Shown piece by piece: positions 2,654-60,203 of a stretch of 64,000 nt of DNA. Every line of letters begins with the position of its first letter. Positions within the stretch are counted from its first letter, which is position 1. Source of the DNA: Candidatus Ryanbacteria bacterium RIFCSPHIGHO2_02_FULL_45_17b (GTDB taxonomy: Bacteria; Patescibacteriota; Minisyncoccia; Ryanbacterales; 2-02-FULL-48-12); contig MHNO01000009.1 in assembly GCA_001819815.1 (NCBI GenBank), positions 147,016 to 211,015 on the forward strand. Direction: 5' to 3'. Under the pieces are notes generated by a model. That model had not been told where the DNA came from. It did no database searches and saw only the letters and a list, made by a program, of their open reading frames with translations. The position numbers and the translations under genes are program-made.

Positions 2654-2811
2654 GCTAGGATATACATGAAAACCACATTTTTTTCCTTGTTTTAGGTGTG
2701 GTTGCCGGGGAGCGAAGATTAACCCCTCCTCGCTCCCCTTTCTCCCTTTTGCCCAAGGTCTCACAGGAGGCCTTTTTTCTTTGGAAACGTACGGTGTTTA
2801 TATTCAGATAC

Positions 2812-2994
2812 CATGAATTACGAAACACACCCTCATCTGATGACCGCCACATGAATTGATAATGAGTTGAACAAGATGTGTAACGTCTTGCGATGACCCA
2901 ATTTGGTCATCGCAAGACGTTATATTGTGCTTGCGTATGCAAATCGATGGGAGGTCATCAGATGAGAGGAATACATGTGTTTCGTAATTTAAAG
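2812..2994 (+). mobile_element. MITE copy 1 (183 bp), imperfect TIRs and internal 15-bp perfect hairpin; flanked by 8-bp TSD tcagatac (2804-2811 and 2995-3002)
   Basis: Same element recurs at 27911-28052 and 56481-56642. Termini catgaattacgaaacac...gtgtttcgtaatttaaag; internal cgtcttgcgatgacc-caatttg-ggtcatcgcaagacg. The direct repeat flanking the copy was read directly. Confidence 0.7.
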
Positions 2995-3714
2995 TCAGAT
3001 ACTAACGAAGTACATACGCACGTCGCTCATTTCATGAAAAATACGGGCGGGAGTTTCAGCAAGCGAGCCTTCCACCAAAAGAACTTTTTCAAGCGCAGAT
3101 TTCTTTTCTTCTCCAACCGCATACACCACGGCGTGATCCACTTGTGTGCGCAAAAAAGGCATCGTAACGGTAACACGGAACGGATATGGATTTTTAGTAC
3201 CCGCGTCATATGCCGCCACCCATTTTGTTTTATCTTCAAATAATTTCTGAAACAAAACAGGGTTTTCCGGAAACGGCATGATACCTGCCGTATGGCCATC
3301 CGCCCCCACGCCCATGGTTGCAATTATAACGCCATCCACATGCGCCTCCGCCCACTCATGAAGCGCTTTTTCAAAACGATCCGCCAATAAAGCCTGTGTT
3401 TCAGCTGCACCCGCGCGCGTATCTATAAACGAAACGCCAACCGCGTACGCATTCGCGTAAAATTTGGTTCCCGTAAGCTGAAAAGAATTATTATCTGCTT
3501 CATCCTGACTAAAACGCTCATCAAGCACGCCAATAGTCACCTGTTCCCCCAGCGCGTCTTTCGGTATTGCATCCAGCAATGAAAAAGCCGACCCGCCGGA
3601 AAGAAGCAAAAGTACGGATTGTGTATGCTCTTTTGCATCCATCAAAAGAGCGCGCAGTAACTCTCCCGCGCGCGCTTGCGTTTCCTGTGTGCTTTTGCAT
3701 TGAGTTATTTTCAT
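2995..3714 (-). CDS. pgl: 6-phosphogluconolactonase / glucosamine-6-phosphate isomerase family protein
   Basis: GVGADGHTAG motif and NagB/Pgl-fold similarity. The track start at 3735 is TTG; the ATG at 3714 (MKITQCKS...) with an upstream AAGAGAAA is preferred. The stop codon lies inside the TSD of MITE copy 1. Confidence 0.55.
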   Translation of the reverse strand: MKITQCKSTQETQARAGELLRALLMDAKEHTQSVLLLLSGGSAFSLLDAIPKDALGEQVTIGVLDERFSQDEADNNSFQLTGTKFYANAYAVGVSFIDTRAGAAETQALLADRFEKALHEWAEAHVDGVIIATMGVGADGHTAGIMPFPENPVLFQKLFEDKTKWVAAYDAGTKNPYPFRVTVTMPFLRTQVDHAVVYAVGEEKKSALEKVLLVEGSLAETPARIFHEMSDVRMYFVSI

Positions 3715-3730
3715 TTTCTCTTTGACCAAG

Positions 3731-3860
3731 GGCAACCTAACTCTTTTTACGGATTATGAAGCCCTTTTGGCCTGGTGTCCCGCTTTAGCGGGATCAAAAA
3801 GGCTTCATCCTCGGAGCCCGCGCCGGCGGGCGAGAATGAGTAAAAAGAGTTAGGTTGCCC
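3731..3860 (-). terminator. Structured, locally GC-rich intergenic element: 21-bp perfect inverted repeat (3731-3751 / 3840-3860) enclosing ~88 nt with three sub-hairpins
   Basis: gggcaacctaactctttttac ... gtaaaaagagttaggttgccc. The right arm overlaps the last codons and stop of the trx-like gene. Inner stems gaagcc/ggcttc, cccgc/gcggg, gcccgc/gcgggc. No U-tract. Confidence 0.4.
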
Positions 3861-17691: not shown

Positions 17692-19089
17692 GTGAATATG
17701 AAACGCATTCTCGCAACCATGTTGTCTTTATTCCTTTTAGTATCCTTTTTTCTGCCATCCCGCGCTCTTGCGGCGCGTTCGCTCTCAATCGGACTCTCGG
17801 GCAGTGATGTGGCGGCGTTGCAGAACGTCCTCATTGAAAAAGGATATCTTGCCACGGGAAAAGCCACCGGGTATTTCGGCCCCCTCACAGAAGCCGGTAT
17901 CAAAAAATTCCAGTGCGACCAAAACATCGTCTGCGCGGGAACACGTGCTTCCGGCTACGGCGTATATGGACCTCGCACGCAAGCGGCTCTGGCAGGTGCT
18001 AGCTCAATCAATCAATTTGAGTTTTCCGGGTGGATACCCTACTGGCGCACAGCCACCGGCACCGCGGATGTTCTCCCCCACCTCTCGCAACTCACAAGCG
18101 TAATGCCTTTCGGGTACACCATGAAAAACGACGGCACGCTTGCCGATACCGCGAAACTTAGGGAAGAACCCTGGACGTCGTTTATTGCGGCGGCAAAAAA
18201 AGCAAATGTCCGCGTTGTTCCCACTGTGATGTGGGGTAATGGCGAGACCATACACCGCGTACTTAGCAACACCGCCACGCGCATCGCGCTGGAAGATGAA
18301 ATAGCGAACGTAGTAAAGCAAAGTGGGTTTGACGGCATTGATATAGACTTTGAAGCAAAAAAACATGAAACCATAGATTATTTCTCCACGTTTCTGAAAG
18401 GGCTTGATATGCGCCTCGGCAACAAATTGCTCTACTGCACAATTGAGGCTCGTATGCCGCTGGACCATCGCTACAGCCCTGGTGCTGTCATACCACCCGA
18501 TGCCATGGATTACGCCAACGACTACAAAGAAATAAACAAATACTGTGACCGCGTAGAAATCATGGCATATGACCAAGGCACCATAGACGTGCATCTGAAT
18601 GGCATCCGGTCAAAACCATACGCGCCGGTTGCCGATCCGGCATGGGTGGAGACATTGGTTACCCTCGCGGCAAAAAGCATTTCAAAAAATAAAATCATAG
18701 TGGGCATCCCCACCTATGGCTATGAATATCAAATTTCACTTCTTCCGGACGCAAGTTTTGAGTATAAGGTGCTTTGGCCGTTTAACCCCCGATACGCCAT
18801 TGATATCGCCAAAAAAATCGGCATCACCCCCACTCGAACCGGCGCGGGCGAGTTAGGTTTTCTGACAACTTCAGCCACATCAGTTCCCGCGGGCGCCGAA
18901 GCCACAGAAGCAGAACCAACAACCATTCCGCCCGTAAGCACGCTCATTTCTTTAAATTACCTAACCTGGAGTGACGCAAAAGCTATTGCGGACAAAGTCG
19001 CCCTCGCGCGGAAATTAGGCGTACGCGGCGTGGCAGTCTTTAAGTTTGACGGCGGACAAGATCCCGGGATGTGGGGCGTATTGAAATAA
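17692..19089 (+). CDS. Secreted glycoside hydrolase family 18-like protein with N-terminal peptidoglycan-binding domain
   Basis: Signal peptide; PG_binding_1-like repeat (LSGSDVAALQNVLIEKGYLATGKATGYFGPLTEAGIKKFQ); GH18 catalytic motif FDGIDIDFE. Confidence 0.7.
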   Translation: MNMKRILATMLSLFLLVSFFLPSRALAARSLSIGLSGSDVAALQNVLIEKGYLATGKATGYFGPLTEAGIKKFQCDQNIVCAGTRASGYGVYGPRTQAALAGASSINQFEFSGWIPYWRTATGTADVLPHLSQLTSVMPFGYTMKNDGTLADTAKLREEPWTSFIAAAKKANVRVVPTVMWGNGETIHRVLSNTATRIALEDEIANVVKQSGFDGIDIDFEAKKHETIDYFSTFLKGLDMRLGNKLLYCTIEARMPLDHRYSPGAVIPPDAMDYANDYKEINKYCDRVEIMAYDQGTIDVHLNGIRSKPYAPVADPAWVETLVTLAAKSISKNKIIVGIPTYGYEYQISLLPDASFEYKVLWPFNPRYAIDIAKKIGITPTRTGAGELGFLTTSATSVPAGAEATEAEPTTIPPVSTLISLNYLTWSDAKAIADKVALARKLGVRGVAVFKFDGGQDPGMWGVLK

Positions 19090-22443: not shown

Positions 22444-23571
22444 TCAAACCTCTTTCACCTCTTCTTTTTTCGGCTCTCCAAGCGTATCCCGCAAAATGTC
22501 TACCACCGCAAGCTCCAATGGCAATTGCGGAAACACGGTACGGTAACTCATCCAGTAGGCATCAATCAATGACTTCATCATCTGTTCCAGTTGTGAAACC
22601 GATGCTTTTGCGCAGTGTTCCTTTATGAACTGCTGTTCGGCATCAGTCATATCGGAAGCAACTTGAGTAGCCATTCTTGCATCAAGCCGGCCAAGCAACA
22701 AGTGCCGTACATTCCGTATAATCATTTTAAGATAAAATTGCGGATCAATGCCTTGATCTACAGCTTCGTTTGCCACGCGCGCCGCCTTAGCCGGGTCCTT
22801 TTCCAAAAGAGCGGCAACAAATGAAAGCACCGCTTCTTCCGGCGGCGCGCCTAACGCAAGCCGCACATCTCCTGTGGTTAGCTTATCACGTCCGCTCAGC
22901 ACCTGCCCCAGCATACTCTCGGCATCCCGCAGGCCGCCGTCGGCAAACAGCGCGAGCAATTGCAAAGCATCCTTGTCTGCCGTAATACCTTCCCTTTTTA
23001 CCATCTTCCCAAGACGTTGCACAATAACCGGCATGGATATTTTACGAAACTCATAATGCTGGGTGCGTGATATGATTGTTTCAGGAACCTTTTCTTTGTC
23101 GGTAGTTGCTAAAATAAAAATCGCGTGGGCAGGCGGTTCCTCCAATGTTTTTAAAAGCGCGTTAAACGCGTCTTTGGTAAGCATGTGGCACTCGTCAATG
23201 ACGTAGATTTTATACTTTGCTTGGGAAGGCGCAAGGCGAATTGCCTCACGAAGCTCGCGGATTTCATCAATGCCACGGTTAGAAGCCGCGTCAATTTCAA
23301 TGAGATCAAGCCCCGTGCCTGCGGAAAACTCTTTGCAAATACCGCAGGTATTGCAAGGCTCGCCGTCTTTCGGTTTCTCACAGCTTGCCGCTTTTGCCAA
23401 CAGGCGCGCCACGGTGGTTTTCCCCGTGCCGCGCGGGCCCGAAAATAAATACGCATGCGCGATGCGATTTAGGCGAATAGCATTCTGAAGCAACAAGGTA
23501 ACATGCTCCTGCCCCACCACATCCGCAAATGTCTGCGGCCGATATTTTCGGTATAAAACGTGCTCGGACAT
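22444..23571 (-). CDS. dnaX: DNA polymerase III subunit gamma/tau (short form)
   Basis: YRKYRPQTFADVVGQEHV, Walker A GPRGTGKTT, clamp-loader Zn module CNTCGIC, SRT motif. Confidence 0.9.
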   Translation of the reverse strand: MSEHVLYRKYRPQTFADVVGQEHVTLLLQNAIRLNRIAHAYLFSGPRGTGKTTVARLLAKAASCEKPKDGEPCNTCGICKEFSAGTGLDLIEIDAASNRGIDEIRELREAIRLAPSQAKYKIYVIDECHMLTKDAFNALLKTLEEPPAHAIFILATTDKEKVPETIISRTQHYEFRKISMPVIVQRLGKMVKREGITADKDALQLLALFADGGLRDAESMLGQVLSGRDKLTTGDVRLALGAPPEEAVLSFVAALLEKDPAKAARVANEAVDQGIDPQFYLKMIIRNVRHLLLGRLDARMATQVASDMTDAEQQFIKEHCAKASVSQLEQMMKSLIDAYWMSYRTVFPQLPLELAVVDILRDTLGEPKKEEVKEV

Positions 23572-23674
23572 GTGGATATTGTACCAAAAATAAACGAAAA
23601 TTCAATCTGTGATACTTGACAACATGTATAATCAGAGTATATTTGAGCCAAAACTGTTTTGAAAGGAGATATGT

Positions 23675-24118
23675 ATGGAAAACAGACTATATCCGAAGGA
23701 GGGAGAGGTGTTTGAGATGACAGGGGATTTTAATGTTAACACCCCTGAAAAGCTCATAAAAGTACTTGGCAGAACAGAAAACTGTGAATATGAGGGGACC
23801 CCATTGACAGGTATCCAAACAGCTAAATTCAAACTCCAGCGAGCAGGAGGCTTTGATGCTGGGAGCGTGCGCTGTTATATCCAAAAGAATTTTGGAGAGC
23901 CGGCTAGGGGACAGTGGATTCTTGTCTTTAAAGAGAATTTCCCTTTCCATGATAACCATTGGAGCATTGGATGTGCGGATGAATCCTGGAGATCGAAATC
24001 TCCTGCAAACTCGAATGGTGTCCTCGTAATTGGCACTAAGAAAGGAGCTATACATCTCGAGTACGAAGGAGATAATTTTTCATCACGTGAGTATATGTGG
24101 CTCGTACTGGTAGAATAG
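23675..24118 (+). CDS. Hypothetical protein (isolated + strand gene, strong SD GGAGA)
   Basis: 147-aa ORF preceded by aaaGGAGAtatgtATG; no recognisable domain. Confidence 0.45.
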   Translation: MENRLYPKEGEVFEMTGDFNVNTPEKLIKVLGRTENCEYEGTPLTGIQTAKFKLQRAGGFDAGSVRCYIQKNFGEPARGQWILVFKENFPFHDNHWSIGCADESWRSKSPANSNGVLVIGTKKGAIHLEYEGDNFSSREYMWLVLVE

Positions 24119-24182
24119 TACTATAGATGGCACACACAACCAGAGACAGTCCAGGCAGGCTGTCTCTTTTTTTATCCCTATA

Positions 24183-24370
24183 GTGTTTAAAAAACAATAA
24201 AATACATTTTTGCACAGATGCTTCGAAATTTAAAATTGTAAGAGTTTTGAAAAAAAATCGTAAACTCCTTCCTCTGGTCGTCAAACATACGATTTTTTGA
24301 CAAACCTCTAACAATTTTTAAAAATTTCTCCACAAAAGTGCAAAAATGTATTTTATTGTTTTTTAAACAC
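24183..24370. repeat. 33-bp perfect inverted repeat (24183-24215 / 24338-24370) enclosing a 122-nt AT-rich spacer with nested hairpins
   Basis: gtgtttaaaaaacaataaaatacatttttgcac ... gtgcaaaaatgtattttattgttttttaaacac. Sits between two convergent genes; the right arm overlaps the GtrA stop region. Confidence 0.6.
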
Positions 24371-27863: not shown

Positions 27864-27910
27864 GGTTTTAGTATAGCAAGATAGAAAATAAAAAGCGATT
27901 ACTGTATATA

Positions 27911-28052
27911 CCGTGAATTATGGAACACACCCTCATCCGATGACCGCCACGCGAATTGATAATGAGTTGAACAAGACGTTATATTGTACTTGCATATGCA
28001 AATCGATGGGAGGTCATCAGATGAGAGGAATACATGTGTTTCGTAATTTAAA
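27911..28052 (+). mobile_element. MITE copy 2 (142 bp; internal hairpin module deleted; degraded TSD gtatatac/tatatag)
   Basis: High identity to copies 1 and 3 across both termini and the gatgggaggtcatcagatgagaggaatacatgtgtttcgtaatttaaag end. Confidence 0.65.
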
Positions 28053-28101
28053 GTATATAGGTATATGTACGCATACTATATACGCATGATACAATGGTCA
28101 T

Positions 28102-29859
28102 ATGGCGTCATCAAAGAAGCATTTTTTAGTTTTTGTTGGCATCCTCCTTCTTGCCATATTCTTTCGTTTCTGGCACATAACAGATATTCCCCCGGGATTA
28201 TATCCCGATGAAGCGATGAACGGCTCAAACGCGCTCCAGGCGCTTGAAAGCGGAAATTTCCGCGCTTACTATATAGACAATAACGGACGCGAAGGGTTGT
28301 TTATTAATCTGCAAGCTCTTGCCATTTGGTTTTTGGGAAATGAAGCGTGGGTATTACGGTTTGTAAGTGCGATATTTGGGATAGTAGCAGTTTGGGGGAT
28401 TTTTTTGCTGACACGAGAATTATTTTGGGACGGCGACTCGCAAACTCAAAGCTCAAAACTCAAAGCTCAAAACTACAACTCAAAATTAAAAACCGAAATA
28501 ATTGCCCTCCTCTCTTCTTTTTTCCTTGCCACCAGTTACTGGCACGTTACACTTTCTCGTCTTGGGTTTCGCGCAATTACCACGCCCACGTTTTCCATTT
28601 TGGCGTTTTATTTTCTGTTCCGCGGCATGCGGAGAAACTCCATGGTTGATTTCGCGCTTTCGGGCATCATGCTAGGCCTTGGCCTCAACGGTTACATCGC
28701 GTTCCGGTTTCTTCCGTTCGCGTTTGCGGTGCCTGTTCTTATCGGCCTTTGGCGATGGTGGAATACAAAACCACGCGGCACAGAATGGAAGGCTTCCGGC
28801 ATAGGATTTTCGGAGGGCGGCGTTGGGGTGGTGGGCGAAGAAAATTCTATGCCGGAAGCCCCAAATACGTGTTTCCCATGCGCGGTTGTGTTAATAGGAA
28901 TTTTTGTCATTGCCACCTGCACCCCGCTTATCATGTATTTTACGGAACACCCGAATGATTTTGCCACGCGCACCGGACAGGTTTCTGTATTTGCCGATGA
29001 GCACCCGCTCCGCGCGTTTGCGGTATCAAACATAAAAACAATCGGCATGGTGAGTGTGTTTGGTGACTGTAATTCACGGCATAATTTTCCTTGTTTCCCC
29101 GTACTACACCCGTTTTTGGCGCTTGGATTTTTTTATGGATTATTTTTGATGATAAAAAAACCAACCAGTCTTACCTTTGCCACATTACTTGCCTGGTTAT
29201 TTTTTCTTTCACTTCCCGCTACTCTTACGCGTGAGGGCATGCCGCACGCCCTGCGTTCCATCGGCATGATTCCGCCCGTAATGATTATTGCCGCGTTTGG
29301 CGCGTATGTGTTTTGGGAAAAGTTATTTTCTGACAAAAAAATCCCCCTTACTCCCCCTTTTTCAAAGGGGGAACTCCTCCCTTTGAAAAAGGGAGGCTGG
29401 GAGGGATTTCAAAATAAAAAAACAACAATTTTTTTTCTTTTGCTTGTTTCCATTCCACTCACAACAGGATATTTATATTTTAATGTATGGGCAAAAGCGC
29501 CTTCCACCGCATCCGCTTTCTCACAAGATTTGTCGGAACTTGCAATGTATGTGCGTTCACTCCCGAAAGAAACTAAAAAATATCTTATTGTGGAACTTGA
29601 TCACGAAGGCCTTCCTGTCTCGGCGCAATCGGTAGTGTATCTTACAAACACCGCAACCACTCAATCACAACATGAACATAATGTAACATACCTTCCGCGC
29701 GTGGGTACTCTGCGCCATATCACGCTTGATGATAAGCCTGCCATCATTGGTTTTGTGGCATTTCATGACAATGCGCTTGAACAAGAACTTGAGCGCGCGT
29801 TCCCTTCACTGATAAAAGAAACCTACGGAGGATTTACGGTGTACTCTTACAAACCATAA
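28102..29859 (+). CDS. Membrane glycosyltransferase, GT-C fold (ArnT/PMT, GT39/GT83-like)
   Basis: N-terminal block RFWHITDIPPGLYPDEAMNGSNA and many TM helices. Contains an in-frame 14-bp tandem repeat and an in-frame palindromic insert. Confidence 0.65.
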   Translation: MASSKKHFLVFVGILLLAIFFRFWHITDIPPGLYPDEAMNGSNALQALESGNFRAYYIDNNGREGLFINLQALAIWFLGNEAWVLRFVSAIFGIVAVWGIFLLTRELFWDGDSQTQSSKLKAQNYNSKLKTEIIALLSSFFLATSYWHVTLSRLGFRAITTPTFSILAFYFLFRGMRRNSMVDFALSGIMLGLGLNGYIAFRFLPFAFAVPVLIGLWRWWNTKPRGTEWKASGIGFSEGGVGVVGEENSMPEAPNTCFPCAVVLIGIFVIATCTPLIMYFTEHPNDFATRTGQVSVFADEHPLRAFAVSNIKTIGMVSVFGDCNSRHNFPCFPVLHPFLALGFFYGLFLMIKKPTSLTFATLLAWLFFLSLPATLTREGMPHALRSIGMIPPVMIIAAFGAYVFWEKLFSDKKIPLTPPFSKGELLPLKKGGWEGFQNKKTTIFFLLLVSIPLTTGYLYFNVWAKAPSTASAFSQDLSELAMYVRSLPKETKKYLIVELDHEGLPVSAQSVVYLTNTATTQSQHEHNVTYLPRVGTLRHITLDDKPAIIGFVAFHDNALEQELERAFPSLIKETYGGFTVYSYKP

Positions 29860-29869
29860 TGTCAGACTC

Positions 29870-29960
29870 CCACTTTATTTGTAAGAAAATTGTTCTACGA
29901 TGGCCTCTATTTGCTTATACCTGTCGGCCATAAAGAACAATTTTCTTACAAATAAAGTGG
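29870..29960. repeat. 27-bp perfect inverted repeat (29870-29896 / 29934-29960) with a 37-nt loop, between the tandem glycosyltransferase genes
   Basis: ccactttatttgtaagaaaattgttct ... agaacaattttcttacaaataaagtgg; loop carries a nested atggcc/ggccat stem. Confidence 0.6.
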
Positions 29961-33510: not shown

Positions 33511-34665
33511 TCATATAATTATGCGCGGTATTAATGGATTAATGCACGTGGTGATTTCATAATTGATCGTACTAATGCGACTTGCCAATTCTTCAGCGCT
33601 GATACATTCCCTGCCTTGCCGTCCTAAAAGCACCACTTCATCTCCGGGCTTCACGCCACGGAGCTTTGTGATATCAAGCATACAGATATTCATACAAATA
33701 TTGCCCACTATGGGTACACGCCTTCCGCCGACCAACACCGCGCCATTATTTGAAAATCCGCGGTCAAACCCGTCCCAATACCCGATGGGAATAACGGCGA
33801 TCTTCATCTCCTTCTGTGCTTTATAGGTGCGGTCATACCCAATAGTTTTTCCGGCCGGAATGGTTTTTACTTGAGCCACACGCGTCTTCCAGGTAAGAGC
33901 AGGTTTGAGTGCTACTTGCTTTTTTACTTTATCAGCTACTTCGGGAGATGGGTACATACCATAGAGCGCAATGCCCAAGCGTGCCATAGTAAAATGCGCC
34001 TCTGGATACAATAACAAAGCTGCGCTCGCGGCGGTGTGCAGATATTGCGGACGTACACCTTCCTCCTCAAAAATCTTGATCGCATTCTGGAAGGCCAAAA
34101 GCTGTTCTTTGTAGTAACGTGACTTTGGGTTTTCTGTATCGGCAAAATGTGTATAGGCTCCTTGGACTATTACCTGCGGCGCAGATTTTTTAAGCGCCCG
34201 AGCAAACGCACTCACATCTTCGGGCATCACACCCTGCCGATGAGTGCCTGTTTCGAGCTTAACGTGCACAAAAACTTTTTTACGCATTTTTTTCGCAAGG
34301 CGCGTAAGCTCTTTGAGCATTGGAATATCATACAAGCACACGCGAAAATTATTCCTGACTACATCCACCAGCATAGCAGATGGCACATAGCCGAGGATGA
34401 GAATTGGATTTTTTATGCCAGATTTTTTGAGTATGAGAGCTTCGTCAATTGAATCCACCCCAAACCAGACAATCGGAGGTTTCGCCTCCGAATAATATTC
34501 GGAGGCGAAACCTCCGATTGTCTTGATAACTTTGACAATACCATGACCATAGGCGTTGGATTTTACTATTGCCATTACAGCGACACCTTTGCCAAGATGT
34601 TTCGTGAGCGCCAAAAAATTATGCCGCAACGAGACGGCATCTACCTCAACCCAGGTTTTATACAT
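33511..34665 (-). CDS. alr: Alanine racemase
   Basis: PLP-lysine motif AIVKSNAYGHG. Confidence 0.8.
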   Translation of the reverse strand: MYKTWVEVDAVSLRHNFLALTKHLGKGVAVMAIVKSNAYGHGIVKVIKTIGGFASEYYSEAKPPIVWFGVDSIDEALILKKSGIKNPILILGYVPSAMLVDVVRNNFRVCLYDIPMLKELTRLAKKMRKKVFVHVKLETGTHRQGVMPEDVSAFARALKKSAPQVIVQGAYTHFADTENPKSRYYKEQLLAFQNAIKIFEEEGVRPQYLHTAASAALLLYPEAHFTMARLGIALYGMYPSPEVADKVKKQVALKPALTWKTRVAQVKTIPAGKTIGYDRTYKAQKEMKIAVIPIGYWDGFDRGFSNNGAVLVGGRRVPIVGNICMNICMLDITKLRGVKPGDEVVLLGRQGRECISAEELASRISTINYEITTCINPLIPRIII

Positions 34666-34732
34666 ATGAGAATTACGAACCATGAATTAAGAATCAAGGA
34701 TAAAAGACCCCTTTATTCTTACTTCTTGATTC

Positions 34733-42416: not shown

Positions 42417-42503
42417 AACCATCAAAAATGTGCTTAGAAAAAGTCTGGCCGAGCGATAGCGAAGGAGAGCCGAGGACTTTTTCTAAGCACATTTTTGATG
42501 GTT
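42417..42503. repeat. 29-bp perfect inverted repeat (42417-42445 / 42475-42503), 29-nt loop
   Basis: aaccatcaaaaatgtgcttagaaaaagtc ... gactttttctaagcacatttttgatggtt; between the aldolase-like gene stop and rplY start. Confidence 0.6.
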
Positions 42504-43463: not shown

Positions 43464-43559
43464 CTACCCCATTGCGTATACTAAACATGTTCTTTACGGC
43501 CAACAGGTGTATACATAGAAGGACGTCGTAGAACATGTTTAGTATACGCAATGGGGTAG
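43464..43559. repeat. 30-bp perfect inverted repeat (43464-43493 / 43530-43559), 36-nt loop
   Basis: ctaccccattgcgtatactaaacatgttct ... agaacatgtttagtatacgcaatggggtag; between glpX stop and the aldolase-like gene start. Confidence 0.6.
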
Positions 43560-47348: not shown

Positions 47349-47942
47349 CTAATCAATAAATTTGAACGTGGAGAGAAATTGTTTAAAATCTTTTTTGTTT
47401 TTGGTTGATGTCTTGTACAACGTAGTTAGCATGGCTGTCATTCCATCAGCATAATTCATTTGGGCTGTTACTGTGGTTGAATCTCCCCAATCAATCATCC
47501 AAGCCCCAGCCAACTCACATCTCATGTCTTGAGGGTAAGCTTCACAATAAGTTATACCAGCAAGCGTTAAATCTATAGTAGATATCACAATAATATCATC
47601 CCCACCCTCAATAAGATGAATAGGCCACTTCGACAAACTTATCGACCACGAAGATGGATACTTAAACTCAAACCCATACTCTTCATTGAGGTATGTTTTC
47701 CAGTCTGATGTGTCATCTTGTGTAATGCTTGGCTTTGCACATTCCTCAAACTCGCAATTTTGCCCCGTGCGCCCTACATACGAGCCATCAGGGCAGAGTT
47801 TTGCTTCCAGCGTGCACGAGATTCGAAAAGAGTGCTGTGCCTTGCGGGGAACGCCAAAATAACTTGCTACTGCAATAATGCTCACTGCCATAAGTAACAA
47901 AGCAACCGCGACAACATGGCTTAGTTTTTCTCGTGCAAACAT
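47349..47942 (-). CDS. Secreted hypothetical protein, paralog A of a three-member family (C-terminal STFKFID)
   Basis: N-terminus MFAREKLSHVVAVALLLMAV is identical to paralog B; shared W(K)TY(L/H)NEEYGFEF(K/R)YP block; ends FKFID. Confidence 0.55.
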   Translation of the reverse strand: MFAREKLSHVVAVALLLMAVSIIAVASYFGVPRKAQHSFRISCTLEAKLCPDGSYVGRTGQNCEFEECAKPSITQDDTSDWKTYLNEEYGFEFKYPSSWSISLSKWPIHLIEGGDDIIVISTIDLTLAGITYCEAYPQDMRCELAGAWMIDWGDSTTVTAQMNYADGMTAMLTTLYKTSTKNKKDFKQFLSTFKFID

Positions 47943-47965
47943 ATTTTTATGTAAAGTTAACTCGA

Positions 47966-48542: not shown

Positions 48543-49394
48543 TTAATCAATAAATTTAAAAGTGGAGAAAATGCTTTCGAGTAATGATTTATTTTCTTTG
48601 TTTCCAACAGTTTGAGTATGCAAGAATATTTGAAAATTGTCCTTGCATATTTCTTTTTCCTCAAACGTAGCCACGCCTGGCCCGTATGAATCTTGAATCC
48701 AGTTTGCGTTTATAGTCTTGGGATCGCAGCCTTTTTGTATTACTATAGTCATGCCTCCTGAAGGTTCTATGCCACCATGCCCCCATTGATCTTGAAAAAA
48801 ACTTTGGACTCCACTGTTGCCTATCTGCCATGTAGGAGGATATCTAAACTCAAACCCATACTCCTCATTATGGTAAGTTTTCCATGAGAGAGCGCTACTT
48901 TCTTTTGGATCATCCTCAATATATCTTGGCACTTGTAAAATACTATACGACTTTAATATTGCGCCGTCGCTCGCCAAACCCTCCGCACGATACCAATATG
49001 TTCTATCACCTATCACAGAATCAACAACCTGTTGAGGCATAGAATCAGTAACCGGCAATGAAAGCACTTTGAGCCATGGGCCATTTTTTAATTCCGATCG
49101 ATAAAACACTAGACTCTTGGCACGAGAAGGAAGATCAGCCCAGTATAAAATAATACTATCTCCCATGTTGAAAGCCAACAAATCTCTCTCAGCGTTTAAT
49201 ACCGTTTGATTGATCGCTTGCGGACTCGGACATTCCGTCAATGTACAATCGGGAACGAGGCGACCAACAGCGCTAGCAAAAGAATTTTCTTTTCGATCAA
49301 CAAGACCAAAATACTCCACAAACGTGATAACCTGCACGGCGACAAGTAACAAAGCAACCGCGACAACATGGCTTAGTTTTTCTCGTGCAAACAT
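48543..49394 (-). CDS. Secreted hypothetical protein, paralog B (C-terminal STFKFID)
   Basis: First ~50 nt identical to paralog A; WKTYHNEEYGFEFRYPPTW block; ends FKFID. Confidence 0.55.
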   Translation of the reverse strand: MFAREKLSHVVAVALLLVAVQVITFVEYFGLVDRKENSFASAVGRLVPDCTLTECPSPQAINQTVLNAERDLLAFNMGDSIILYWADLPSRAKSLVFYRSELKNGPWLKVLSLPVTDSMPQQVVDSVIGDRTYWYRAEGLASDGAILKSYSILQVPRYIEDDPKESSALSWKTYHNEEYGFEFRYPPTWQIGNSGVQSFFQDQWGHGGIEPSGGMTIVIQKGCDPKTINANWIQDSYGPGVATFEEKEICKDNFQIFLHTQTVGNKENKSLLESIFSTFKFID

Positions 49395-49403
49395 ATATCA
49401 CGA

Positions 49404-56326: not shown

Positions 56327-56480
56327 AAATTCTCCTTATTCTTATTTGGTTTTCAACGCAAAAGATACTAATCCCATGTGTAGCATTTTTCCTGTTATTT
56401 GTCAAATTTTTACACTGCACTCGTGGGCTACGTAATGATTTCTGAACTTTTGACCGAGTAGACACATATAGCTACTTTAC

Positions 56481-56642
56481 CATGAATTACGAAACACACC
56501 CTCATCCGATGAACGTCACGCGAATTAATAACGTCTTGCGATGACCCAATTTGGTCATCGCAAGACGTTATATTGTGCTTGCGTATGCAAATCGATGGGA
56601 GGTCATCAGATGAGAGGAATACATGTGTTTCGTAATTTAAAG
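56481..56642 (+). mobile_element. MITE copy 3 (162 bp) flanked by a perfect 8-bp TSD tactttac (56473-56480 and 56643-56650)
   Basis: Same termini and internal 15-bp hairpin as copy 1; lacks a 19-bp segment present in copy 1. Confidence 0.7.
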
Positions 56643-56706
56643 TACTTTACATTCTATCCTCTTATTTTATACTTACATCAGGTCTAAAATATAATTAACC
56701 AAACAT

Positions 56707-59443: not shown

Positions 59444-59483
59444 GCAAAAACAAAAGACGTTTGAGAAAAAAGCAGTGAAATTA
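59444..59483. repeat. 40-bp perfect direct repeat, copy A (identical to 60164-60203)
   Basis: gcaaaaacaaaagacgtttgagaaaaaagcagtgaaatta appears twice, 720 bp apart, bracketing the methyltransferase gene. Confidence 0.8.
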
Positions 59484-60126: not shown

Positions 60127-60165
60127 TTATTTCTTCACCGCTTCCATCTTGAGGAGTTTTTTGGC
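60127..60165 (-). pseudogene. Relic 3' end of a second mscL copy (encodes ...AKKLLKMEAVKK*)
   Basis: About 36 bp homologous (roughly 85% identity) to the mscL 3' end at 60779-60816; abuts direct-repeat copy B. Confidence 0.5.
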
Positions 60166-60203
60166 AAAAACAAAAGACGTTTGAGAAAAAAGCAGTGAAA
60201 TTA
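60164..60203. repeat. 40-bp perfect direct repeat, copy B
   Basis: Identical to 59444-59483. Confidence 0.8.

Follow-up and report, generated by a model that had tools for sequence, protein, structure and literature searches.

Three perfect hairpins of 27-30 bp that lie at gene boundaries in the window (the whole 64,000-nt stretch of DNA analysed here) are best read as belonging to one lineage-restricted palindromic dispersed repeat, in which the arms would be kept perfect and the loops flipped by template switching, with a possible secondary role as RNA hairpins. We assign this reading a probability of about 0.6. Two of the hairpins are clear members of the family and the third is probably a distant relative.

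The three elements, designated I6, I4 and I3, have fully complementary arms of the lengths first reported for them, and their geometry is given in Table 1. As had also been described, each is situated between same-strand genes with its arms near a stop or start codon (10-41 nt from the former, 16-47 nt from the latter): I6 between two GT39/PMT_2 glycosyltransferase genes, I4 between a DUF2090/DeoC-like gene and the gene for ribosomal protein L25, and I3 between glpX and the DUF2090 gene. Because about 91% of the window is coding, this intergenic placement is not expected by default. A census of perfect inverted repeats with arms of at least 14 bp and loops of at most 120 nt returned 10 in the window, compared to a mean of 0.07 in 30 Markov shuffles, where the longest arm reached 14 bp. 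The predicted RNA folds of I6, I4 and I3 are very stable on either strand (-47 to -58 kcal/mol, z about -9 to -11), and G.T pairs are absent from all 86 bp of their stems. No T-run was found 3' of I6, I4 or I3 and a terminator scan was blank at all three, in line with the initial annotation, which had noted the lack of a U-run; canonical hairpin-plus-T terminators occur elsewhere in the window (24142-24167 and 54039-54016). No sigma-70-like promoter was reported inside the elements.

Table 1. Arms, loops and inner stems of the three hairpins (window coordinates; bit scores are those of the type A covariance model)
Copy	Part	Length	Position	Strand	Remarks
I6 (type A)	left arm	27 nt	29870..29896	.	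100% complementary; 10 nt past the stop of the GT39/PMT_2 gene 28102-29859
I6 (type A)	loop	37 nt	29897..29933	-	core TTATGGCCGACAGGTATAAGCAAATAGAGGCCATCGT on the minus strand; 96.8 bits, minus strand
I6 (type A)	inner stem in loop	6 bp	29900-29905 / 29926-29931		ATGGCC / GGCCAT
I6 (type A)	right arm		29934..29960	.	end 28 nt upstream of the second GT39 gene start (29989)
I4 (type B, divergent)	left arm	29 nt	42417..42445	.	47 nt upstream of the ribosomal protein L25 start (42369, minus strand)
I4 (type B, divergent)	loop	29 nt	42446..42474	+	TGGCCGAGCGATAGCGAAGGAGAGCCGAG; 38.5 bits, plus strand only; orthologues in L081 and L095
I4 (type B, divergent)	right arm		42475..42503	.	end 41 nt past the DUF2090 stop codon (42545)
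I3 (type A)	left arm	30 nt	43464..43493	.	16 nt before the minus-strand DUF2090 gene begins (43447)
I3 (type A)	loop	36 nt	43494..43529	+	TTACGGCCAACAGGTGTATACATAGAAGGACGTCGT; 111 bits, plus strand
I3 (type A)	inner stem in loop				ACGGCC/GGACGT, pairing 5/6
I3 (type A)	right arm		43530..43559	.	end 26 nt downstream of the glpX stop (43586)

An assembly artefact was ruled out by the presence of identical copies in several assemblies. I3 and I4 were base-identical in seven loci each of the set L001-L008, obtained from several samples and with several assemblers, the sole exception being one loop SNP in L006, and I6 was identical in three further assemblies. Across these assemblies (7 covering I3, 7 covering I4 and 3 covering I6), no flip or insertion polymorphism was detected within the species. 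Contig L104 (Ga0209541_10167960) has its position 1 inside the left arm of the 29870-29960 hairpin, which indicates that the palindromes act as assembly break points.

The initial annotation had considered the hairpin sequences unrelated and unique, and had raised the possibility of many distinct single-copy elements. Our alignments contradict this, and the members of the family are instead diverged copies of one dispersed repeat. When I6 is reverse-complemented (TTGTTCT-TTATGGCCGACAGGTATAAGCAAATAGAGGCCATCGT-AGAACAA), it aligns with I3 (ATGTTCT-TTACGGCCAACAGGTGTATACATAGAAGGACGTCGT-AGAACAT) in both loop and arms, the two having a common centre of about 48 nt, TGTTCT-TTAYGGCCRACAGGT...GTAGAACA, together with homologous arms. 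The element measures about 87-96 bp and is organized around an inner 6-bp arm, TGTTCT/AGAACA, that flanks a loop of about 36 nt with a 6-bp stem of its own; beyond this conserved centre lies an outer arm of 21-24 bp that evolves faster, and conservation along the element is highest at the centre and lowest at the termini. Of 16 loci retrieved from metagenomes with GTTCTTTANGGCCNACAGGT, six were true members (L014, L018, L019, L020, L021 and L022). The similarity among these six continues far outside the search pattern, taking in the arms (consensus CCCCATTGCATAYAAGAAAAATGTTCT) as well as the loop's 3' half, which indicates that the arms are homologous as well and are only the fastest-evolving part.

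A type A covariance model built on eight copies scored its own members at 63-111 bits and also matched I4 (42418-42502; E about 1e-6), and a manual alignment of I4 with the type A core revealed TGGCCGA...ATAG..AAGGA and AGAAAAAGT in common. Since the same model gave no match on the I4 orthologue in L081, we regard I4, termed type B, as only probably a distant relative of type A, as judged from these alignments. The family as initially drawn also included the elements at 3730-3860 and 24183-24370; the grouping of I6, I3 and I4 was retained, and the other two, unmatched by the model, are treated as different elements. The first of these (3730-3860) is a composite palindromic element between two minus-strand genes, with outer arms of 21-26 bp and nested GC-rich inner hairpins, and matched neither the type A model nor Rfam. 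Most of the 24183-24370 inverted repeat falls within a 779-nt segment (23566-24344) that corresponds to 66 nt in the syntenic relative L019; the segment also holds a 147-aa ORF without a Pfam match and a terminator (24142-24167 plus T7), and looks like the insertion or deletion of a small gene cassette.

In total, 11 distinct copies were found (8 of type A and 3 of type B), plus a truncated remnant in L019. The type A model detected no additional copies in 209 kb of lineage DNA, and there is no third copy of the arms within the window. Copies at unlinked loci are homologous in loops and arms at 75-86%; within one genome, copies retain about 60% identity in the arms and about 75% in the loop, each copy being internally perfect. 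The genes beside the relatives' copies are unrelated housekeeping genes (GalT, VTT, DegT, GT2, PMT_2, VirD4-like and ScpA), and the window contains no orthologues of the genes that flank the metagenome copies. A derived insert, the 20-nt mini-hairpin CCTGCCTGCCGGTAGGCAAG, and one and the same G.T mismatch unite L014, L020 and L021, although each lies at a different locus, which indicates that copies spread as units. Relative to the flanking genes, the loop was antisense in five of nine copies and sense in four. In 5 of 7 copies RYRTT lies directly 5' of the palindrome on the core strand, a weak asymmetric signal that could be a target or cleavage tag.

The family resides in Parcubacteria (Patescibacteria/CPR) of a Ryanbacteria-like clade found in aquifer groundwater. 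The DUF2090 protein encoded beside I3 and I4 is 77% identical to that of Candidatus Ryanbacteria RIFCSPLOWO2_02_FULL_45 and 80% identical to that of Parcubacteria Gr01-1014_70; the contigs with the elements come from aquifer and groundwater metagenomes, and those of the six metagenome copies probably represent related bacteria. A search of 185,579 species-representative genomes with the core TTCTTTAYGGCCRACAGG yielded 56 matches, all attributable to chance and none in a hairpin context at that stringency, and in viral contigs the type A core had two chance matches, the type B core none and 20-mers from each of three arms none. With only chance matches in the representative genomes and viral contigs, the family appears restricted to a narrow clade. 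A phage origin was rejected because no real viral-contig match was obtained, and the arms were likewise rejected as guide- or spacer-like copies of foreign DNA, their 20-mers being absent from viral contigs. A gathering scan of the window against Rfam 15 returned tRNA only, and permissive Rfam scans of two regions gave only generic miRNA-precursor matches, at 31-36 bits against cut-offs of 73-110.

Orthologous sites were compared in sister species whose DUF2090 protein is about 83-86% identical. At site a (glpX-DUF2090), a type A copy is present in both the window (I3) and L081, flanked by a homologous spacer, which marks them as one insertion. At 4 of 29 positions the arms of one copy depart from those of the other, although each is perfect in itself, and their loops are identical at 28 of 36 positions after reverse complementation compared to 17 of 38 otherwise. 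The site is empty in L095 and L097, where glpX abuts the DUF2090 gene at a distance of 7-10 nt. Site b (DUF2090-L25) carries type B in the window (I4), L081 and L095, all in the same orientation; the loop is identical at 27 of 29 positions between the window and L081 and is more diverged in L095 (about 23 of 29 by eye). Approximately six arm positions differ at this site, mostly in compensated fashion (all but one between the window and L081), with one uncorrected mismatch in L081 and three in L095. In L086, L097, L099 and L100 site b is empty, the spacer being 42-58 nt long with the conserved L25 leader kept; the species that lack elements in these spacers are 80-84% identical at the protein level. 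At the I6 site, the left arm and one half of the loop persist in the syntenic locus L019, and their orientation is opposite to that in the window. Inverted loops were thereby seen in 2 of 3 orthologous intergenic comparisons, plus one in-frame coding palindrome (GT39). The initial annotation had proposed that orthologous spacers be compared for compensatory substitutions versus presence/absence, and both were found; its view that perfect stems of this length are hard to maintain unless selected or recent is borne out in so far as they need active maintenance, the arm differences (4-6 positions) being mirrored at site a and, with one exception, at site b.

Other, nested palindromes occupy site b in the Ryanbacteria strains L082-L085. 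In L082 (10494-10900), L083 (5052-5336) and L085 (3053-3275), the DUF2090-L25 spacer measures 407, 285 and 223 nt, respectively, despite an identical DUF2090 protein. The palindromes in these three spacers are rich in CCGAGCT/AGCTCGG, and the spacers hold a 20-nt mini-hairpin, CCTGCCTACCGGCAGGCAGG, that is also found as the loop insert of the type A copies L014, L020 and L021.

Covariation and conservation were quantified next to controls. In the eight-copy alignment, both-sided changes affected 16 of 36 stem pairs, compared to 6.5 ± 1.7 in shuffles (0 of 500 reached 16) and 1-6 in slid controls, and the inner loop stem displayed one C-G to T-A covariation. Between the window and the L081 species, identity is 52% at 4-fold degenerate sites and 33-39% in two ordinary spacers, which are unalignable, and the elements are 78-93% identical (site a, 82%, binomial P about 7e-7 against the 4-fold sites; site b, 86%, P about 2e-8). 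Identity so far above that of 4-fold sites indicates that the elements, loops included, are not evolving neutrally. On sequence grounds, such conservation may fit host use, element-level selection or homogenisation among copies; with regard to homogenisation, the L081 loop at site a matches that of its paralogue L022 at 31 of 36 positions and that of its orthologue I3 at 28 of 36.

Palindromes of other families were also encountered, some of them in frame within genes. The GT39 ORF at 28102-29859 contains an in-frame palindrome (window 28791-28860; L019 4936-5009) whose arms differ between the two genomes and are compensated; its 28-nt loop is reverse-complemented between the window and L019 with the frame kept open, which alters the peptide from SEGGVGVVGEE to SSPTTPTPPSE. 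The same ORF holds an imperfect palindrome (29322-29426, core CCCTTTTTCAAAGGG) that is absent from the L019 orthologue and has an 88% match in reverse orientation at an unrelated L021 locus (3370-3428), possibly another intragenic palindromic repeat family. A 14-bp deletion in the L103 strain assembly, at window 28442-28455, splits the first GT39 gene into two ORFs and represents a strain-level frameshift polymorphism in a low-complexity KLK-rich stretch. In the alr ORF (33511-34683, minus strand), a perfect 57-bp palindrome with a 1-nt centre lies in frame at 34467-34523, and also at L021 2738-2794, in a position that corresponds to a variable loop of alanine racemase; in the Ryanbacteria relative L082 this alr site is taken by a 52-bp palindrome, also perfect but differing in sequence (17920-17971), and in the relative L086 alr is without the 9-12 codon segment. 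A second dispersed repeat of about 150-190 nt has three intergenic copies in the window (2808-2995, 27908-28055 and 56478-56644; 91-100% identity), with imperfect terminal inverted repeats of about 45 bp, apparent 5-bp target-site duplications by eye (CAGAT, ATAT(A) and ACTTT), a central 44-bp palindrome in two copies (2881-2922 and 56528-56571) that is absent from the third, and no Rfam match; it looks like a classical MITE. Exact direct repeats of 53 nt (47892-47944 = 49344-49396, at the 5' ends of two neighbouring minus-strand genes, which may be common N-terminal signal sequences of paralogues) and of 40 nt (59444-59483 in a spacer = 60164-60203 inside a small ORF) were observed as well.

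How the hairpin family spreads and keeps its stems can be outlined from these comparisons. Homologous dispersed copies, empty sites and a common derived insert together indicate a non-autonomous mobile repeat, which we infer to be MITE- or REPIN-like, and the three-copy MITE in the window means that this genome does host palindromic mobile DNA. The combination of perfect Watson-Crick arms, multi-base compensation, frequent loop inversion and occasional uncorrected transition mismatches is of the sort that template switching from arm to arm of a quasipalindrome gives, and template switching has been documented to make perfect stems, multi-base compensatory changes and loop inversions (PMC8794818). 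The arms would be kept identical by intra-element copy-correction at replication, in which the nascent strand may fold back or cross the fork and copy the opposite arm (template switching or quasipalindrome correction), and a switch that spans the loop would invert it. The three mismatches in L095, the single one in L081b and the common G.T suggest that this arm correction is not fast. Since each copy lies in an operon spacer, it must be transcribed as a perfect RNA duplex of 27-30 bp, which would be an ideal RNase III substrate or exonuclease block, and any host role, speculative as it is, would probably act here.

Several observations speak against mobility, namely the lack of target-site duplications (none visible at any type A or B copy upon inspection of the flanks), the low copy number and the absence of within-species polymorphism. 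No extension of the palindromes into the flanks was apparent on inspection, and no transposase, integrase or HUH/Y1 domain was found in the Pfam annotation and scans of most window genes or in the fetched neighbourhoods. As far as sequence comparison can tell, the strong conservation points to a host-level function or concerted evolution, not to passive junk. A stricter version of this thought, which we consider doubtful, is that the elements form a functional CPR-lineage module under purifying selection, acting either as an orientation-independent operon-punctuation dsRNA hairpin or as an ssDNA-hairpin substrate of an undescribed centre-reading enzyme; in the operon-punctuation form, the elements would supply perfect dsRNA for RNase III with stems constantly renewed by template switching.

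A less likely alternative is that the hairpins are selected cis-acting RNA structures recruited by the host, serving as RNase III sites, 3'-exonuclease barriers or U-independent terminators that uncouple operon neighbours. It would account for the exclusively intergenic location between co-directional genes, the very stable folds (z about -10), the frequent compensatory changes with the C-G to T-A covariation in the inner loop stem, and the conservation far above 4-fold sites. However, inversion of the loop between orthologues means that a conserved loop would be read as its complement, the orientation relative to genes is mixed, a complete lack of G.U in 86 bp is unusual for RNA-selected stems, a U-tract is missing where canonical terminators are present in the same window, and the same spacers exist without the element in relatives, one of them as a tight 7-10 nt operon junction. 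The initial annotation had suggested U-independent terminators or processing sites, a proposal that is unsupported and against which the missing U-run, the mixed and flipping loop orientation, the element-free relatives and the canonical terminators elsewhere in the window weigh. A site recognized at the DNA level, with a centre of about 30-36 bp bound on a cruciform or ssDNA hairpin by an HUH/Y1-type enzyme or a nucleoid or recombination protein independently of transcription direction, would be compatible with flipping, since the centre is the conserved part also after inversion; both types have TCGGCC/GGCCGA, motifs of the CTCGG type reappear among the nested palindromes that occupy the DUF2090-L25 spacer in Ryanbacteria, and the RYRTT signal stands directly 5' on the core strand in the proportion given above. 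We nevertheless consider it quite unlikely, given that no candidate protein emerged among the annotated and scanned genes, that copy number is low and that no known site was matched.

Independent origin of each hairpin de novo by template-switch mutation, which can create perfect stems in one step (PMC8794818), would be in keeping with the further, unrelated palindromes, likewise perfect, that lie within coding sequence of alr and GT39. The homology of loops and arms at unlinked loci (75-86%), the model scores of 63-111 bits and the derived insert common to three copies at different loci contradict this for type A, and as a general account it is very improbable, although for the hairpin at 42417-42503 it could still hold, provided that type B turns up at no other loci. 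The least credible proposal, with scarcely any weight in our view, is that the elements are invertible switches (invertons) or integron attC-type sites. Inverted repeats do surround a segment seen in both orientations across species, and the position after gene ends resembles that in cassette arrays. However, a segment of 29-37 bp probably falls below the length that a recombinase can invert between flanking repeats. Among the annotated and scanned genes, none near the elements encodes an invertase or integrase, and only one orientation was seen in the 7, 7 and 3 assemblies that cover I3, I4 and I6, respectively. The R''/R' ends of attC sites (RYYYAAC/GTTRRRY) are also lacking, the actual ends being CCAC.../CTACCCC.../AACCATC..., and the stems are perfect without extrahelical bases and neighbour core housekeeping genes (glpX, L25 and GT39).

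The preferred reading, a palindromic dispersed repeat maintained by template switching, finds partial parallels among known systems. REPINs are inverted REP doublets that form hairpins of about 100 nt and are mobilised by RAYT transposases (Bertels & Rainey 2011, PMC3116915). Like them, the present elements are extragenic hairpins of about 90-110 nt with a spacer or loop, dispersed between genes and vertically persistent, and compensatory changes across the hairpin are common in both (PMC3116915). The ends of REPINs, however, are near-invariant 16-mers around a variable spacer, whereas the present elements are conserved at the centre and variable at their ends. No REP unit tagged with GTAG or CGTC is evident at those ends, and GTAG itself is confined to the loop/arm junction and two outer ends. 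Furthermore, neither the window nor its flanks revealed a RAYT (Y1 transposase, PF01797), copies seem few (2-3 per 64 kb), and the host is a CPR bacterium, unlike the proteobacterial or cyanobacterial hosts of REPINs.

Bacterial MITEs and similar repeats, such as the Neisseria Correia elements, ERIC, RUP and the Rickettsia palindromic elements (PMC3184786, PMC2229807), offer a second comparison. They too are small non-coding palindromic repeats with long terminal inverted repeats (here perfect over 27-30 bp) that lie between genes, are co-transcribed and fold into long hairpins, and the present family is likewise dispersed (11 copies) at unlinked loci with orthologous sites empty in L086, L095, L097, L099 and L100. 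Correia hairpins are RNase III substrates. The in-frame palindromes inside GT39 and alr resemble the Rickettsia palindromic elements. In contrast to MITEs, our elements show no target-site duplication and no matching insertion sequence in the genes annotated or scanned (about 70 kb of genome), their termini are the least conserved part, and their copies are diverged yet each internally perfect; there is no sequence similarity to the Correia, ERIC, RUP or Rickettsia palindromic families. Formal membership among MITEs or REPINs is thus blocked by the missing target-site duplication, the absence of a transposase or RAYT in the genes annotated or scanned, and the reversed conservation pattern.

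With the template-switch mutations described by Monttinen & Loytynoja (2022, PMC8794818), the family has in common that one mechanism would explain perfect stems, compensation and loop inversion. That work concerned short stems in rRNA and other RNA genes, whereas the stems here are 27-30 bp with loops of 29-37 nt in non-coding dispersed repeats, and the mechanism is deduced and not tree-reconstructed. Intrinsic (Rho-independent) terminators likewise place a stable hairpin shortly after a stop codon, but the present hairpins lack a U-tract, exceed them 3-4 times in stem length and about 10 times in loop length, and lie within operon junctions.

Proteobacteria, firmicutes and cyanobacteria are familiar hosts of small palindromic repeats, and our literature search found none described in CPR/Patescibacteria, whose genomes are tiny and tightly packed. 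The family provides a clean natural case of 27-30 bp stems that keep perfect pairing through sequence drift and loop flipping, which is the pattern that template-switch correction is predicted to leave. In annotation, the elements mimic miRNA-like or terminator-like features, and where related palindromes lie in frame inside genes, a flip of the loop changes the encoded peptide. The elements amount to another example of the familiar "junk-or-regulator" repeats of bacteria, not to a novel type of terminator, and, conserved far beyond neutral sites, they may serve the host, for example by uncoupling the genes of an operon.
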